DNA of 64,000 bases, taken from positions 4,855-68,854 of the forward strand of contig JBBQWG010000017.1 of the NCBI GenBank assembly GCA_038210825.1, given 5' to 3'. The position numbers were made by a program, and so were the translations under genes. Within the stretch, counting starts at the first letter, position 1. Each line of letters opens with the position of its first letter. Below, piece by piece: positions 10,069-22,612 of the stretch. This stretch comes from Verrucomicrobiales bacterium (GTDB lineage: Bacteria; Verrucomicrobiota; Verrucomicrobiia; Verrucomicrobiales; V1-33). The notes under the pieces were generated by a model that made no database searches, was not told where the DNA came from, and saw only the letters and a list, made by a program, of their open reading frames with translations.

Positions 10069-10992
10069 ATGATCCTGCAAGCCCGCCACCGCACGGTGAC
10101 CTTCCCCCGCCGTCCCCTGGTCATGGGGATTGTGAACATCAATGACGATTCCTTTTGCGGAGATGGGACGCTGGATCCTGCCGTGGCCCTGGCGCAGGCA
10201 AAACGCATGGCAGCGGAAGGGGCGGACATCATTGATGCGGGAGCCGAAAGCGCGCGGACCAACCGGCCGGCCATCACGGTGGACGAAGAAGTAAAACGCC
10301 TGACTTCCTTCATCGGGGCCTATCAAGAGTGGGCCCGGGAAGCGGTGGCGGCTGATCCCCCCATGGATGCGGAACAATTGTGGCCGCCCCTGTTGTCACT
10401 GAATACATGGCGGCCGGAAGTGGTGGAGGCCGTGCTGCCGCTGGGCGGGGATTTGCTGAATGACATCGGGGCCCTGCCCGAAGACCGGAATGCCCGGCTT
10501 TGTGCCCGCCATGGGGTGGCTCTGCTGATCATGCACAGCATGGGCCTGCCCAAGGAAAAACACACGCATGTCGGGTATCCTTCGATCATGGCCGAGCTGG
10601 ACCGGTTTTTCGCGGAAAAACTGGCGATATGTCAGGCCGCCGGACTGCCGGTGGAGTCCATCGTACTCGATCCCGGGATCGATTTTGCCAAACAACTGGA
10701 GGATAACCTGACTATTTTCCGCGAACTGGAACGGCTGGGGCGATTCGCCCGGCCGGTTCTGCTGCCGGTTTCTAGGAAGACCGTGATTGGGGAGGTGCTG
10801 GGGCTGCCGGATCCGCTGGACCGCGATGCCGGCACCCTTGCCTGTATAGCCCGGGGTATGTCCGCAGGAATGCACCTATTCCGGGTGCACAACGTCAAAG
10901 CCGCCGCTGAAGCGGTGAAAGTGTTATGGGCTGTGGAAGGCGGAAGCGATCTGTTGGCGTCCCGCCTTCAGGCGGCTTCCGGCTCCGCCTGA
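10069..10992 (+). CDS. folP: Dihydropteroate synthase (divergent loops)
   Basis: VMGIVN..DSF, DIIDAGAES, LLNDI, LDPGI, VSRK and FRVHNV motifs. Confidence 0.85.
   Translation: MILQARHRTVTFPRRPLVMGIVNINDDSFCGDGTLDPAVALAQAKRMAAEGADIIDAGAESARTNRPAITVDEEVKRLTSFIGAYQEWAREAVAADPPMDAEQLWPPLLSLNTWRPEVVEAVLPLGGDLLNDIGALPEDRNARLCARHGVALLIMHSMGLPKEKHTHVGYPSIMAELDRFFAEKLAICQAAGLPVESIVLDPGIDFAKQLEDNLTIFRELERLGRFARPVLLPVSRKTVIGEVLGLPDPLDRDAGTLACIARGMSAGMHLFRVHNVKAAAEAVKVLWAVEGGSDLLASRLQAASGSA
10953..10975 (+). repeat. REP-like palindrome, copy 1 (overlaps the folP 3' end)
   Basis: GTTGGCGTCCCGCCTTCAGGCGG; near-identical to the reverse complement of 12435-12458. Confidence 0.65.
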
Positions 10993-12309: not shown

Positions 12310-12434
12310 GGAAATCAGGAACGTGGTGCCCAGGATGCGTCTTGCAATTCAAGCTACCGCAATTTTTTCAGAAAATTTGGTTCATCGTTTATATTGGATT
12401 CACCGCATCGGCTGCACGATCAAGTCAGCCGATT

Positions 12435-12458
12435 CCGCCTGAAAGGCGGGACTCCAAC
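12435..12458 (-). repeat. REP-like palindrome, copy 2
   Basis: Reverse complement GTTGGAGTCCCGCCTTTCAGGCGG: a GGAG foot plus a CCGCC/GGCGG hairpin. Confidence 0.65.
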
Positions 12459-12542
12459 CTGGGGTGCAGCACAAGGTTGGCGTTATTGAATCAGGCGCTT
12501 CTCCAACCGAAGCGCGGGACGACACAAAATATTACCCCCCAC

Positions 12543-14783
12543 TCAGGGCAGCGGAAAGCGGCGGTTCAATTCGGCGGCCCAGGTCTGGGTGGCGGCGAGG
12601 ACGGCATGGTCGCCGATGTTGCTGAGCACCTTGTGGATGGCGTCGGAGATTTGTTCCATCTCGGCTTCCTTCATGCCGCGGGTGGTGACGGCCGGGGTGC
12701 CGATGCGGATTCCGCTGGGCCGGAAAGGGCTGGCGGTGTCGAACGGGATGCTGTTTTTGTTTACAGTGATCCCTGCTTCGTCAAGCGTTTCCTGGGCGGT
12801 CTTGCCGTCGAGTCCCTGGGGCCTGAGGTCAATCAGCATGAGGTGGTTATCCGTGCCCCCGGAAGCCACGGTATAGCCATTTTTCACCATGCGGGCGGCG
12901 AGGGCCTGGGCGTTTTTGACAATCTGTGCCTGGTATTCCCTGAAGCCGGGCTGGAGGGCTTCGTGGAAACAGACGGCCTTGGCGGCAATGACATGCATGA
13001 GGGGGCCACCCTGCACCCCGGGGAAGACCTGGGCGTCGATCTTTTTGGCGTGTTCGGCTTTACAAAGGATAATGCCGCCTCGGGGGCCGCGCAGGCTCTT
13101 GTGGGTGGTGCTGGTGACAAAGTCCGCATGAGGCACTGGGCTGGGATGCACGCCGGCAGCGACCAGACCGGCGATGTGGGCCATGTCCACAAAAAGCAGG
13201 GCCCCCACACTTTTCGCGATTTCGGCCATGCGGGCAAAGTCGATGGTGCGCGGGTAGGCACTGGCTCCGGCGGTGATCATTTTCGGTCTCACCGCCAGCG
13301 CGGTTTGGGCGAGTTCATCGTAATCAATGCGGCCGTCTTTTTCACTGACACCGTAGTGGGTGACCGCGTAGAACTTGCCGGAAAAGTTGGCCGGGTGGCC
13401 GTGGGTCAGATGGCCGCCGTGGGCCAGATTCATGGTCAGGATTTTGTCGCCGGGGTCGAGGAAGGCAAAATACACGGCGGCATTGGCCTGGCTGCCCGAG
13501 TGGGGCTGGACATTGGCGTGGTCGGCTCCGAAAATCTGCTTCACGCGGTCGATGGCCAACTGCTCGGCCACATCGACATTTTCACAGCCGCCATACCAGC
13601 GTTTTCCGGGATATCCTTCGGCGTATTTGTTGGTGAGGCAACTGCCCTGGGCTTCCATCACCGCACGGCTGGCAAAGTTTTCGCTGGCGATGAGTTCGAT
13701 GAAGTTCTGCTGGCGGACCGCTTCCTTGTTGATGCAGGAGGCAATTTCGGGGTCCACCGAGGTCAGCCCCGGGTTCATTTTAACCACGCGGGTTTCATGG
13801 CGGCCGGCTTCGAATTCCGTGGCCAAAAAGGCTTCCGCCATTTCCGCAGCGGCGGCGGGCGCGGTATGGCCGGCGAAGACCATGACGTTGGCATTGTTAT
13901 GCCTGCGGGTCATCACGGCGGCGTTGGTGTCATTAAGCAGGGCGGCCATAATTCCTTTATTCCGGTTGGCGGCGATGCTCATTCCAATGCCGGTGGTGCA
14001 GACAAGGAGGCCCGTATCGAAGTCACCGGCCAGGACGCGCTGGGAGACTGTTTTGGCGTAGTCCGGATAGTCCACCCGGTCGCCGCTGTGCGTGCCGATG
14101 TCCTCTACGATATGGCCTTTGGCCCGCAGCGCCTGGACGAGGGCATCCTTGAGCTGGAGCCCCCCATGATCTGCTCCGGCGATGATGGTTTTGAGTCCCT
14201 TGTCTGCAGCGGGGGAAACTGAGGCGGCAGCAGGGGCATCGGCTAGGGCGGAAGGCGTCATGGTAGGGTGGGATAGAGTGGAGGAGAGGGCGGCGGGACC
14301 TGGCGGAGAACCGCCGGCAGGTTTCCAGGTGGTTTCGATAAAGGCGTGAACTGATGGCAGGGCCCGCTTCAGGGTGTCGAGCGTTTCTTCATAGGCCCCG
14401 CGGCCATAACCGATAGGGTCCGGAACATCCTGTCCCATCAGGTCATCGTCCGGGCAGAATTCGCATACCAGATACGTCTTGGCGGCGGCCTTGGGGTAAA
14501 GGGATTCGACGTAGGCGCGGTGGCCGGTGGTCATCGTAAAAATATGGGTGGCCTCCTGGACCATCTCCCGGGTGAGCGGCTGGCTGCGGAACCGGCTGAG
14601 GTCCACCTTTTCCGTTTTAAGGACTTCCACCGTGTGCTGGCTGGCCCGCTGGCCGGTGGCGGCACTGATGCCTGCGCTCTCGATGTGGTAATCATCCGCC
14701 CCCTTCACCAGGGCACGGAACAGGCCTTCCGCCATAGGGCTGCGGCAAACATTTCCAGTGCAGACGAAGATGATGTGTTTCAA
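12543..14783 (-). CDS. glyA: Triple fusion: LMW protein Tyr/Arg phosphatase + ribose-5-phosphate isomerase B + serine hydroxymethyltransferase
   Basis: One frame carrying [13 protein letters not shown], then GADHGG..DYPD..CTTGIG..RRHNNAN, then [30 protein letters not shown] start with GGAGG 8 nt upstream. Confidence 0.92.
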
Positions 14784-14978
14784 GAGAGGGACCTCCGTGG
14801 TCGGGTTGACCCGGGCCACCTGGCGACCAGGCATCCGCGGAAGCAACAAAGGACGCGGAAAGGAGGCAGTGTCAAGCCGGGGGGAACCTCCCCCGCTTCA
14901 CCCGCCCCTGCGGCCCGGGTGCCCTGACCGGGAAATCCAACGCGTGACATCCGGTCCAAATCCGCTATGGGTCCCAGC

Positions 14979-15500
14979 ATGAAAATCCCTGTCTTGCTGC
15001 TGATTGCCCTTTGTCCCGGATTGGCCATGGCCCAGGCTCCAGCCCCGGCCCCGGCGGCTCCGGGCGTGACCGACACCGAGGCCCCCAACCAGTTCTGGGA
15101 CTGCACCCTGCCCGGAGGCAGCTATACCGTGGCCCTGAATAAAATCAGCGTCGTCAGCCTGCACGAATTTAACCTGACCGGCGGCCGGGTCACGGAATTC
15201 AATATCATCACGGAAGGTGCCGGTATGGCGCGGTTTTATTTCATGGAAGCCGCCCTGCCCGGCAGTGGGTCGGCGGCCGCCGAGGCCGCCAAAACCCGCC
15301 TGACCGAACTGGCCAATACTGCTGCCGACCGCACCGGCACGGAAAAAGTCTGGCAAAAGGTCATGAAGGATTATCCCCTGGCCACGCATGCCCACACCAT
15401 CGAATTCCGCCTCCAGTCCAAAGCCGACCTGGTCGCCCTGCATGCCAGCGCCAAACGCGCGTGGATGACCGGGCGGGGCCGCACCGTAACCGCTTCCTGA
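14979..15500 (+). CDS. Secreted hypothetical protein
   Basis: Signal peptide, AP-rich linker and a globular domain (FWDCTLPGG..HAHTIEFRL). Family not recognised. Confidence 0.7.
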   Translation: MKIPVLLLIALCPGLAMAQAPAPAPAAPGVTDTEAPNQFWDCTLPGGSYTVALNKISVVSLHEFNLTGGRVTEFNIITEGAGMARFYFMEAALPGSGSAAAEAAKTRLTELANTAADRTGTEKVWQKVMKDYPLATHAHTIEFRLQSKADLVALHASAKRAWMTGRGRTVTAS

Positions 15501-15533
15501 AGTGAACAGACCTTGATCTGAAAACTCCTCCTC

Positions 15534-16910
15534 ATGAAATCCACCCCTCTCGTCCTCCTGCTCACCCTGACCTGCGGCGGCCTTGCGGCCGGTTATTGGT
15601 TGGGGCATGCCCGTGCCAGCGCCACGGGGGCGGATACCGAACGCCGGATGGATGAGGCTATCGCCCTTGCCACCGCGAAGGCCAAAGCCGAGGCCGCCCG
15701 TGACTTTGCCATGAACAGCCGCATTCCCATGCCTGCGGGAATGTCGGCGGATGGCCTCAACGGCATCATGTCCGCTCCCGGTCCCCTCGACCGCTTTCAG
15801 GGTATCTTCTCCCATATCCAAGGGCTTCCGGCGGATCAAATTGAAAGCGAAATCCTCAATGTCCGCGAACAGATGCAGGCCGGGAATTTTGATCCGGAAC
15901 GCATGTTTGCCATGCACCTGCTGATGACGCGCTTTGGTCTGGAACAACCCGAGCGGGCCGTCACCTGGCTGGATGGTCAGGACATGATGACGCGCGGATT
16001 CGGCACGGTGACGGTGCTGGCCAGTCTTGCCAGCAAGGATCCACAGCTCGCGGCCAAATTTTTCAACGATCCTGACAATCCCATCCTGAGGATGCCGCGG
16101 GTTGGCTCCTTCGCCGCCTTGGGGGTAGCCCGGGAATGGGCCCGCACGGATCCCTCCGGAGCCATGACCTGGGCCAAGTCCCTGCCGGAAGACAGCCGGG
16201 CCGGAGCCTTCACCGGGCTGATCGGCGGCCAGATGGCGGAGGATCCGATGGCGGCCACCCGCACCGCCGCAGAACTCCCGCCCGGGGAAGACCGCGAACG
16301 CCTGCTGGGAAATATCGCGGAAAACTGGGGCACCAAGGATCCCCAGGCTGCGCTTGGCTGGGCCAATACCCTGGAAGGAAACGAAAAAGCGGAAGCCACC
16401 AAAAAGGCTTTGAATGGCTGGGCCAACAAGGATCCCAAAGCTGCCGCCGATCACCTCGCCACCCTGCCCGCTGCCGAACGCGACCAATACACCGGCAGCG
16501 TGGCCGCCCGCTGGGCCAACCGCAATCCCGCCGAGGCAGCCACCTGGGTCGGCACCCAGCCGGAAGGCGAAGGCCGCAAGGAAGCCATGGGATCGGTGAT
16601 GGGCACATGGGCCGAGACCGAACCGGAAAAGGCCAGTGCATGGCTTGTCACCCAGCCGGCCGGCCCCAGCAAGGACGCGGGCATCGTCACTCTTGCCAAC
16701 AGCCAGATGAAATCCGATCCGGAAGCCGCCCTCACATGGGCGGCCACCATTGAGGACCCCACCGCCCGGTCCCTGCAGATGAAAACCAATATCCGTCAAT
16801 GGGCCCGCCGTGACGCCGGCAGTGCCACCCAGTGGGTCAACACGGCTCCGGGGCTCACTCCGGAGGACCGCACCGAGCTGCTGCCCGCCCCCAAACCGCC
16901 GGCCCCCTAA
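15534..16910 (+). CDS. Membrane-anchored alpha-solenoid repeat protein
   Basis: N-terminal hydrophobic segment and about nine repeats of roughly 30 aa of the form W-x3-DP-x-AA-x2-W. Confidence 0.8.
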   Translation: MKSTPLVLLLTLTCGGLAAGYWLGHARASATGADTERRMDEAIALATAKAKAEAARDFAMNSRIPMPAGMSADGLNGIMSAPGPLDRFQGIFSHIQGLPADQIESEILNVREQMQAGNFDPERMFAMHLLMTRFGLEQPERAVTWLDGQDMMTRGFGTVTVLASLASKDPQLAAKFFNDPDNPILRMPRVGSFAALGVAREWARTDPSGAMTWAKSLPEDSRAGAFTGLIGGQMAEDPMAATRTAAELPPGEDRERLLGNIAENWGTKDPQAALGWANTLEGNEKAEATKKALNGWANKDPKAAADHLATLPAAERDQYTGSVAARWANRNPAEAATWVGTQPEGEGRKEAMGSVMGTWAETEPEKASAWLVTQPAGPSKDAGIVTLANSQMKSDPEAALTWAATIEDPTARSLQMKTNIRQWARRDAGSATQWVNTAPGLTPEDRTELLPAPKPPAP

Positions 16911-19964: not shown

Positions 19965-21662
19965 ATGATTCAAGCTTCCTTTGAAAAAACCGGGGCGGGC
20001 AAGCTCCCGGTGTATGTGATAGGACATCAAAATCCTGACACCGACGCCATCTGTTCCGCCATCGGCTGTGCCGAACTGCTCCGCCTGACCCGTTATCCGG
20101 ATGCCGTAGCTGCCTGCTGCGGAGGCCTCAATCCACGCACCCGCTGGGTCCTCGAACGCGCCGGCCTCGAAGCTCCCCATCTCATCATGGACCTCCGGCC
20201 CACTGCGGAAACGATCTGCCGCGCCGATGTGGTCAAGGCCGCCGAACATGAAACCTTCCTTGATGTGTATCAGCGCATGGAACGCGCCGAGGTCCGGACC
20301 ATCCCGATTGTCGATGCCGCCGGCCATGTCACCGGTCTGGCCAGCATCCAGGATCTGCTGAAACTGCTGCTCCACAACATTGAAGACAAATCGGAAGCCC
20401 GCCGCGTCCGCACCACCCTCGCGAACATGGCCCGCACCCTTGAAGGGCACATCGCCTGCGGCCGCGAGCTGGATATCGAAACGGACTTTATCCTGACGGT
20501 CAGTGCTTCCAGTGAGGACACCGTAGAGGACCGGCTCCATGAATACCCAAGGGAACGCCTTGTGGTGGTGGTCGGCGACCGCCCGGAGGTGCACCGTATG
20601 GCCCTGGAAGTCAAAGTGAGGGCCATCGTCCTCACCGGGGGAGCGCAGATGGCCCAGGACCTGTTGGAACGCGCAAGGCTGGAAGGATGTGCCGTGCTCT
20701 CCTGCCATCACGATACCGCCAGCACCACCCAGTTGATCCGCTGCTCCCGCCGCATCGCCGATGCCGTGGACCGCAGCTTCAAGTCCTTCGGAGCCAAGAC
20801 CCACATTGCCAATCTCCGCACCGAAATCCAACACATCCCGCAGTCCCTCTTTCCGGTGGTCCGGGAAGACAGCGGCCAACTGGTCGGAGTCTTTTCCAAA
20901 TCCGATCTTCTTGAACCGCCACGCCAGCGCCTCGTCCTCGTGGATCACAACGAACTTTCCCAGGCCGTGCCCGGGGCGGCAGAGGCTAACATCCTCGAAG
21001 TTCTGGACCACCACCGGCTCAGCGGCAATCTGGTCTCCCGCGAACCGATCCGGTTTATCAATGAACCGGTGGGCTCCACCTGCACCATTGTCGCGAGGCT
21101 TTTCCAGCTTTCCTCCCTGCGTCCTTCCCCGCCGGTGGCCCTCTGCCTTTGTGCCGGTCTGATCAGTGACACCCTCAACCTGACATCCCCCACCACCACC
21201 GGAACGGACCGCGAGGTCCTGACATGGCTGGCCGGACAGGCCGGGATTGTAGTGGACGAATTCTCCCGCGACTTCTTTGCCGCCGGCTCCCTGCTCCGCT
21301 CCAGTCCGGCCGAGATCATCCTCAACACGGACCGCAAGGAATTTGTCGAGAATGGATGGAGCATCAGTATCAGCCAGATCGAAGAACTCAGTCTGGAGCA
21401 CTTCGAAGCCCGGGCGGACGACCTGCGCAAGGCTCTGGCCGACCTCGCCGAACGCCGGGAAAGCGACTTTGCCTGCCTGATCATCACCGATATTTCAAAA
21501 CATTACAGCCTGCTTCTGACCAGTGGCAGCCAGTCCGTGGTGGATGAGATCGATTTCCCCCACCTTGCTCCGGACCTCTTTGAGATGGATGGCGTGGTCA
21601 GCCGCAAGAAACAGTTTTTTCCCTTCATCAGCCGGGTCCTCGCCCGTGCCGCCAAGGCCTAG
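19965..21662 (+). CDS. ppaC: Family II Mn-dependent inorganic pyrophosphatase with a CBS-DRTGG-CBS insert
   Basis: [24 protein letters not shown] and SRKKQ motifs; CBS and DRTGG-like insert. Confidence 0.88.
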
Positions 21663-22549
21663 GCTGCTCCCTGACCTGCCAACGCACGGGCGGCCTTGAT
21701 CGTATTGGAAATCAGCATGGCAATGGTCATGGGCCCCACCCCGCCCGGCACCGGCGTGATGGCCCGGCACAGCGGGGCCACCGTGTCAAAATCCACATCC
21801 CCCACCAGCCGGTAACCGGATTTGGTGGCCGCATCCGCGATCCGGTTGATCCCGACATCCACCACCACCGCGCCTTCCCTGACAAAGTCTGCAGTGACAA
21901 ACCGGGGCTTGCCGATGGCGGCAATCAGGATGTCCGCGTTGCGGCAGAGGGCAGGCAGGTCCCGGCTGCGGCTGTGGGCCACCGTGACGGTGGCGTTGCC
22001 TCCCGGTCCCTTGGCCATCATCAGCAGAGCCAGCGGTTTGCCCACGATCATGCTGCGTCCCAGCACCACCACGTTGGCGCCTTCCGTGGGGATTTGATAG
22101 TCCATCAGCAGGCGCTGGCAGCCCAATGGCGTGCAGGGCACAAATCCCGAGTCATCCTCAAGGGCCAGTTTGGCGACGTTTTCCGGATGGAAACCGTCCA
22201 CGTCCTTGCGGGGATCGATGGCCCGGATGATGGCGGCCTCATCAATCTGGGGCGGCGGCGGGCTCTGCACCAGAATCCCATGGATGGCCGGATCGTCATT
22301 GAGCTGCCGGACCACCGCCAGCAGCTCCTCCTGGGTAGTAGTGGCAGGCAGTTCCAGTTTGACGGAATGCATCCCCAAATCCCGGCAGGTGCGGTCCTTG
22401 GAGCCGACATAGGCTTTGGAGGCCGGATCATCCCCCACCAGCACCACGGCGAGGCCGGGCTGGATGCCGGCAGCGGCCAGGGTCGTCAAGGCAGCGCGGC
22501 ATTCTTCGAGCACGCGGGCCGCAGTGGATTTGCCATCAATCAGAATCAT
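21659..22549 (-). CDS. folD: Methylenetetrahydrofolate dehydrogenase/cyclohydrolase
   Basis: [33 protein letters not shown] and [10 protein letters not shown] motifs. Confidence 0.97.
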
Positions 22550-22612
22550 TGCAGGAGGGGAGGAACGGGGTTGGTAGGGAAGGGTGGACCGCACGAAGCA
22601 AAAGGCAGGATC

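Follow-up and report, generated by a model that had tools for sequence, protein, structure and literature searches.

A protein in which a low-molecular-weight phosphatase, ribose-5-phosphate isomerase B (RpiB) and serine hydroxymethyltransferase (SHMT) are joined in a single chain has been in print since 2008, when Hou et al. (Biol Direct 3:26, PMC2474590) reported Minf_1669 of Methylacidiphilum infernorum V4. There the three domains are given as a low-molecular-weight phosphatase, an RpiB-homologous domain and SHMT, and the protein is called unusual, a link of the serine and pentose-phosphate pathways. Here we describe a gene of the same build on the minus strand of a 64,000-nucleotide stretch of DNA, referred to below as the window, from a Verrucomicrobiales bacterium (assembly GCA_038210825.1, contig JBBQWG010000017.1, positions 4,855 to 68,854). 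A preliminary description of the window stated that no functional characterisation of such a fusion was known. We also found no functional study of a phosphatase-RpiB-SHMT fusion in the literature, only the 2008 genome paper; however, the fusion is not undescribed. The architecture is already known, in print and in public databases, and is not new.

The closest described counterparts of the phosphatase module are the arginine phosphatases YwlE of Bacillus subtilis and Geobacillus and PtpB of Staphylococcus aureus, with which it shares the C-x5-R-S P-loop and the D-P acid loop. In YwlE and PtpB a threonine at position 5 of the P-loop confers the preference for phosphoarginine (pArg), and its replacement by isoleucine raises general and phosphotyrosine (pTyr) activity while lowering pArg activity (PMC8001253). 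The S. aureus ptpB gene lies directly upstream of glyA (PMC8001253), and the likeness to these systems extends to a gene neighbourhood with glyA and to an McsA/McsB kinase in the genome. The window module differs from them in carrying Val where YwlE and PtpB have Thr at the selectivity site, in being covalently joined to two metabolic enzymes, and in a CxxC ahead of the acid loop. The remaining modules resemble stand-alone RpiB (TIGR01120) and GlyA (NF000586) in exceeding the curated cut-offs and keeping the catalytic residues. Unlike the stand-alone enzymes they lie head-to-tail, with about two residues between them, and in this genome they replace RpiA and a separate glyA.

The minus strand from 14849 to 12543 is one frame without a stop, within which the gene itself comprises 746 codons and a stop. 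Translation is predicted to begin at a TTG (14783-14781), with a GGAGG (14796-14792) located 8 bases 5' of it. This TTG sits 7-8 codons ahead of the P-loop Cys and recurs at that place in 12 of 13 close relatives, whereas the residues further upstream are variable, which argues for a protein of 746 amino acids, the length originally proposed. The coordinates of the features are collected in Table 1.

Table 1. Features of the fusion gene and its surroundings, in window coordinates.
Feature	Position	Strand	Basis
Whole gene, phosphatase-linker-RpiB-SHMT	12543..14783	-	Open frame; three Pfam/NCBIfam domains in order; 75/125 related loci likewise
Ribosome-binding GGAGG and TTG start	14781..14796	-	Sequence; conservation in close relatives
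YwlE-like low-molecular-weight phosphatase domain	14358..14774	-	PF01451 8.7e-29; YwlE structures as nearest; pLDDT >90
Linker 1, 49 aa, Pro/Ala/Ser/Thr-rich, predicted disordered	14193..14339	-	Domain projection; AlphaFold2
In-frame ATG (Met175), from which RpiB-SHMT might be initiated internally (candidate)	14259..14261	-	Sequence; comparative Met pattern
RpiB domain	13779..14186	-	PF02502 6.5e-45; TIGR01120 over cut-off
SHMT domain	12546..13763	-	PF00464 2.7e-169; NF000586 638 bits
Terminator-like hairpin and T-run, overlapping the stop codon	12534..12559	-	Consensus match only
folP (Pterin_bind)	10069-10992	+	Window neighbour
folD	21659-22594	-	Window neighbour

Pfam finds the domains LMWPc, LacAB_rpiB and SHMT in that order, and the motifs named in the preliminary description (CTGNVCRS, DVPDP, GADHGG, CTTGIG, HNNAN and TTHK) are all present. 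The phosphatase module scores 101 bits against PF01451, where the cut-off is 23.2. Its P-loop occupies residues 8-15 of the 746-residue protein (14739-14762), and its acid loop reads DVPDPIGYG, with the general-acid Asp at 14418-14420; D122 and P123 are invariant among 41 aligned homologues. At all loci examined the phosphatase module has the P-loop Cys of the C-x5-R-S motif. Among solved structures the module comes closest to 4pic, 1zgg and 4kk3, all YwlE arginine phosphatases (~1e-21), which supports reading it as an arginine phosphatase. An arsenate reductase of the pI258 ArsC type was considered and rejected, with 44.8 bits to TIGR02691 against a cut-off of 174.3. No equivalents of the second and third catalytic cysteines of ArsC (Cys82 and Cys89) were seen in the window translation. 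Just ahead of the acid loop the module contains a CxxC pair (VCEFCP, 14454-14465) that most of the 41 aligned sequences share and B. subtilis YwlE lacks; the pair is a possible redox switch.

The RpiB module exceeds the cut-off of the NCBIfam rpiB equivalog TIGR01120 (145.7 bits against 138.65). It contains a fourth motif, GRHETR, beside the three listed above, and its catalytic Cys lies at 13998-14000; GADHGG supplies the catalytic Asp-His and HNNAN the His-Asn. In 768 numbering it has each of D227, H228, C284, T286, H317, N318, R350, H351 and R354. Of 108 fused modules, 106 retain the D-H-C-H signature, the window's included. The SHMT module is full length, covering profile positions 1-403 of 404, and scores 638 bits against NF000586 (cut-off 335) and 563 bits against PF00464. 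Its Lys for pyridoxal phosphate, within TTHK, is at 13098-13100, and T559, T560, H561 and K562 are invariant in the 41-sequence alignment. The three modules in one polypeptide are a genuine and probably trifunctional fusion.

A middle module that resembles RpiB but has no catalytic residues is nevertheless retained in the fusion in at least four lineages. The catalytic His/Cys/His are lost in L088 (G153), L089 (G132, Methylacidiphilum caldifontis), L112 (G039) and L107 (G158). The M. caldifontis protein (WP_206826184.1), from the same genus as Minf_1669, has D-P-S-E in this module, in contrast to the intact module of the window. The retention of a catalytically dead module suggests that it may have a structural role.

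The two junctions of the protein differ in length. Across the fusions RpiB and SHMT are separated by 2-11 residues, about 2 in the window. The linker between the phosphatase and RpiB measures 10-64 residues (median 20) in 66 fusions, is 57% Thr/Pro/Ala/Ser and is essentially unalignable. In the window it comes to 49 residues by domain projection, close to the figure of about 45 given originally for a Pro/Ala/Ser-rich linker. An AlphaFold2 model of the monomer, built on the 41-sequence alignment, contains three confident domains. The predicted local distance difference test score (pLDDT) of residues 157-194 is below 50. The predicted template modelling score of 0.55 means that no fixed packing between the domains is predicted.

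The assembly of this organism is 97% complete, and within it we found no second SHMT and no RpiA. In the one RpiB-family paralog the conserved His is replaced by Asp. A single further LMWPc-family gene (G000:C14:108762-109334; L128 1262-1834) is ArsC-type, with CTGNSCRS and VCGNADEAC, and is of the predicted thioredoxin-coupled arsenate reductase type. This inventory shows the fusion protein to be the genome's only predicted SHMT, its only canonical ribose-5-phosphate isomerase and its only YwlE-type phosphatase. For annotation and metabolic models, any of the one-enzyme automatic names leaves two of the three functions out of sight. Elsewhere in the genome an mcsA-like gene with a UVR motif is followed by an mcsB-like ATP:guanido phosphotransferase gene (PF00217, 227 bits; G000:C45:51031-52854, L129 2031-3854). 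Although the phylum is Gram-negative, 386 of its 401 sampled genomes have McsB-like genes, near-universal carriage; among 14 control genomes they were found in B. subtilis only.

A survey of domain architecture, proposed in the preliminary description, was carried out on 125 loci, comprising 80 species-level genome loci and 45 more from one genome per family of Verrucomicrobiota. Architectures were derived from stop-to-stop open reading frames and BLAST of the three domains. The triple fusion was found at 75 loci, and at a further 33 the phosphatase is split from a fused RpiB-SHMT. The other arrangements are a phosphatase-SHMT fusion without RpiB (5 loci), separate phosphatase and SHMT (5), three closely spaced but separate genes (4), a triple fusion with a middle module too degenerate for a match (2) and RpiB-SHMT only (1). 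In the sample of one genome per family, 62 of 83 genomes gave a continuous match to RpiB-SHMT; the RpiB-SHMT fusion is widespread in Verrucomicrobiota and probably old. Cultured carriers of the fusion exist, Chthoniobacter flavus among them. Searching sequence databases yielded more than 120 cluster representatives, 59-96% identical and all with the three Pfam domains, and every organism-named match belongs to Verrucomicrobiota. Where a product name is given, it is 'ribose 5-phosphate isomerase B' or 'glycine hydroxymethyltransferase', and hundreds of triple-domain proteins stand in public records under such plain enzyme names.

The same survey bears on whether the window gene is real. Split relatives can differ from the fusion by a single in-frame stop, so an error of one base could mimic a fusion, and a lost stop or frameshift in the assembly might have falsely joined separate genes. 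We regard this as extremely improbable and rejected it on the conservation of the frame among relatives. The six closest relatives (81-95% SHMT identity) and 74 other genomes share the open frame, and the window linker shows features of its own clade. An uninterrupted frame at so many related loci is not the product of chance or misassembly.

The evolution of the two junctions was followed on a tree of the SHMT domain (124 loci). Changes between triple fusion and other states number 12-13 by parsimony, and at least eight are forced by well-supported branches. The phosphatase junction is on this evidence evolutionarily labile, and RpiB-SHMT appears as the stable core. The original proposal that an ancient cluster had been frozen into one polypeptide is wrong for the phosphatase junction, although the origin that it assumed, from neighbouring genes in the order phosphatase, rpiB, glyA, fits relatives that show every intermediate. 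The same order is found in B. subtilis, as ywlE-ywlF-glyA. In Haloferula sargassicola and H. luteola the same genes stand in the same order as phosphatase and RpiB-SHMT, one stop codon apart. At 14 of the 33 split loci the phosphatase and RpiB-SHMT are in frame with one stop between them, and split or alternative arrangements in the phylum often share the reading frame of the fusion. This shows that a single base change could convert the split form into the fused form and the reverse. The family presents gene fusion and fission by single stop-codon change, many times over within one phylum. The in-frame relatives were also considered as a sign of read-through, an idea that was dropped as 14 of 33 is not clearly over the one-third expected by chance. 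In G246 and G183, an apparent common frame of phosphatase and SHMT with RpiB out of frame between them was likewise rejected; both have three tight separate genes. Direct phosphatase-SHMT fusions with no RpiB between them occur in five families (L085 in G048, L086 in the 0.9-Mb genome G090, L124, L125 and L126), and in these genomes RpiB is encoded elsewhere. One further locus, L087 (G016:C6), has an 877-codon frame in which the 314 codons 5' of RpiB-SHMT contain no recognisable phosphatase; this part is AT-rich and may be non-coding.

In our view the gene likely specifies a single chain whose three modules are all catalytically competent, derived from fused neighbouring housekeeping genes, in which the phosphatase would act as the eraser of McsA/McsB. 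The fusion arose between adjacent genes of a conserved housekeeping cluster in the order given above. RpiB and SHMT are joined almost rigidly, and the phosphatase is attached through the disordered Thr/Pro/Ala/Ser-rich tether by loss of a stop codon, an easy step that has been taken and reversed repeatedly. RpiB and SHMT are obligate dimers in characterised homologues, and the two modules would most likely form a homo-oligomer core that makes ribose-5-phosphate and glycine plus one-carbon units in a fixed 1:1 ratio. The phosphatase would swing on its tether and would most likely erase the marks of McsA/McsB, the protein-arginine kinase whose genes lie in another part of the genome. A benefit of the fusion in co-expression and fixed stoichiometry is supported. 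The preliminary observation is confirmed, and its interpretation is partly supported; the physical link that it proposed between protein dephosphorylation, pentose-phosphate flux and one-carbon supply, and the higher-order assembly, are hypothetical.

Several points weigh against this proposal. The oligomer step draws on knowledge of RpiB and SHMT homologues, and the AlphaFold2 model is of a monomer. The gene stands alone in the window, with no pathway neighbours in an operon. Given a conserved internal Met in the linker, other products may accompany the full-length form or even outweigh it. Finally, the Val at position 5 of the P-loop is not the Thr that determines pArg preference and, together with the predominance of Ile and Val among fused modules, makes the role as an arginine phosphatase uncertain.

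The residue at position 5 allows a different reading, that the phosphatase changed its job on fusion and no longer acts on pArg. Its substrate might then be pTyr, a small phosphorylated metabolite, or the RpiB/SHMT core in cis. The triple fusions have Ile in 39 cases, Val in 21, Thr in 10 and Ser in 5. Fused modules overall have Ile or Val in 65 cases and Thr or Ser in 16, compared with 17 and 25 among free-standing modules (Fisher p = 1.6e-5), and the effect of the Thr-to-Ile replacement in YwlE and PtpB points the same way, as do the direct phosphatase-SHMT fusions of five families. However, the association vanishes once phylogenetically independent pairs are compared (2.6 in the same direction, 0.7 in the opposite one and 3.6 showing no difference, which is not significant), and the idea that fusion is coupled to a Thr-to-Ile/Val change was given up, the strong raw association being unsupported by these contrasts. 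A changed job is also at odds with a genome that encodes McsA/McsB and no other YwlE-type phosphatase, with an overall similarity that is highest to YwlE, and with a translation that showed no ArsC-type Cys pair. We consider a changed substrate possible but doubtful, and continue to favour the pArg eraser.

The linker contains an in-frame ATG, at residue 175, which the preliminary description had suggested could yield an RpiB-SHMT isoform. Its frame and position held, and the comparative pattern of Met fits the suggestion; no Shine-Dalgarno motif was found upstream of it in the window. Among 75 fusions, every linker of 19 residues or more contains Met (50 of 50) and no shorter linker does (0 of 25), giving 50 Met-containing linkers where 37.7 would be expected. 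Exactly one Met is present in 45 of the 75; Val, Asn, Leu and Arg, which are about as frequent, occur exactly once in 19-27. The Met lies a median of 18 residues before RpiB, even though the linkers are unalignable. In the split relatives L041 and L046 RpiB-SHMT begins at such a Met, followed by a low-complexity Thr/Ser/Ala/Pro tail of 19-21 residues, which suggests that the linker Met is the ancestral start of RpiB-SHMT.

It is possible that the gene makes two nested products, the full-length protein from the TTG and a phosphatase-free RpiB-SHMT from the ATG at 14261, which might be the major one; this would add to the three-module reading set out above. The comparative Met pattern and the two split relatives favour it, as does the weakness of the upstream start, a TTG that the clade conserves. 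Fused genes also begin more often with a codon other than ATG (35 of 82 against 9 of 42 free genes, phylogeny not corrected for). Against this stand the missing Shine-Dalgarno motif and the 25 fusions, all short-linker, that have no Met at all; the Met could also be a relic of the ancestral start. In addition, no sigma-70-like promoter was found on the coding strand, in a scan that is uninformative for this phylum. We regard nested products as a tentative suggestion. A more elaborate version, in which the weak TTG gives little of the long form, the linker ATG gives the bulk of RpiB-SHMT and the two co-assemble, appears quite improbable. The tethered module would in that case erase McsA/McsB pArg marks and may shield this essential enzyme in cis from pArg-directed degradation, and gain or loss of the stop codon would tune the tethering.

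The neighbourhood of the gene bears on a reading in line with the original one, by which the protein would be a true metabolic machine, channelling or co-regulating the supply of ribose-5-phosphate and of glycine and one-carbon units to purine synthesis. RpiB and SHMT are tightly joined over most of the phylum, and purD precedes the cluster in one relative. Directly downstream and on the same strand, 49 of 80 related loci have zwf (glucose-6-phosphate dehydrogenase; for example L027:4871-6403), which ties the fusion gene to the pentose-phosphate pathway, although zwf is not at this position in the window. The genes folP and folD, stated originally to lie within about 10 kb, are both within about 7 kb of the fusion gene. 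On the other hand, the RpiB and SHMT reactions have no shared intermediate, so there is nothing to channel. The lineages, at least four, that keep the fusion with a catalytically dead RpiB point to a structural or merely inherited role, and several families do not have the fusion. A metabolic machine of this kind seems unlikely to us, and co-expression at fixed stoichiometry remains the favoured benefit.

In the window the fusion gene is flanked upstream by a divergent gene of unassigned function and downstream, 233 bases away, by a gene for a Gfo/Idh/MocA oxidoreductase. Two shadow or antisense open reading frames, 12342-14222 on the plus strand (626 amino acids) and 14898-16799 on the minus strand (633 amino acids), have Gly/Arg/Ala-rich translations; they were rejected as genes and are typical artefacts of high GC content. 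Nine metagenome-assembled genomes in the survey (L009, L017, L020, L023, L063, L069, L073, L079 and L080) are titled Akkermansia muciniphila, Bifidobacterium, Enterobacteriaceae or Proteobacteria. Their fusion genes are Chthoniobacteraceae- or Pedosphaerales-type in the tree, and these taxonomic labels are probably wrong.

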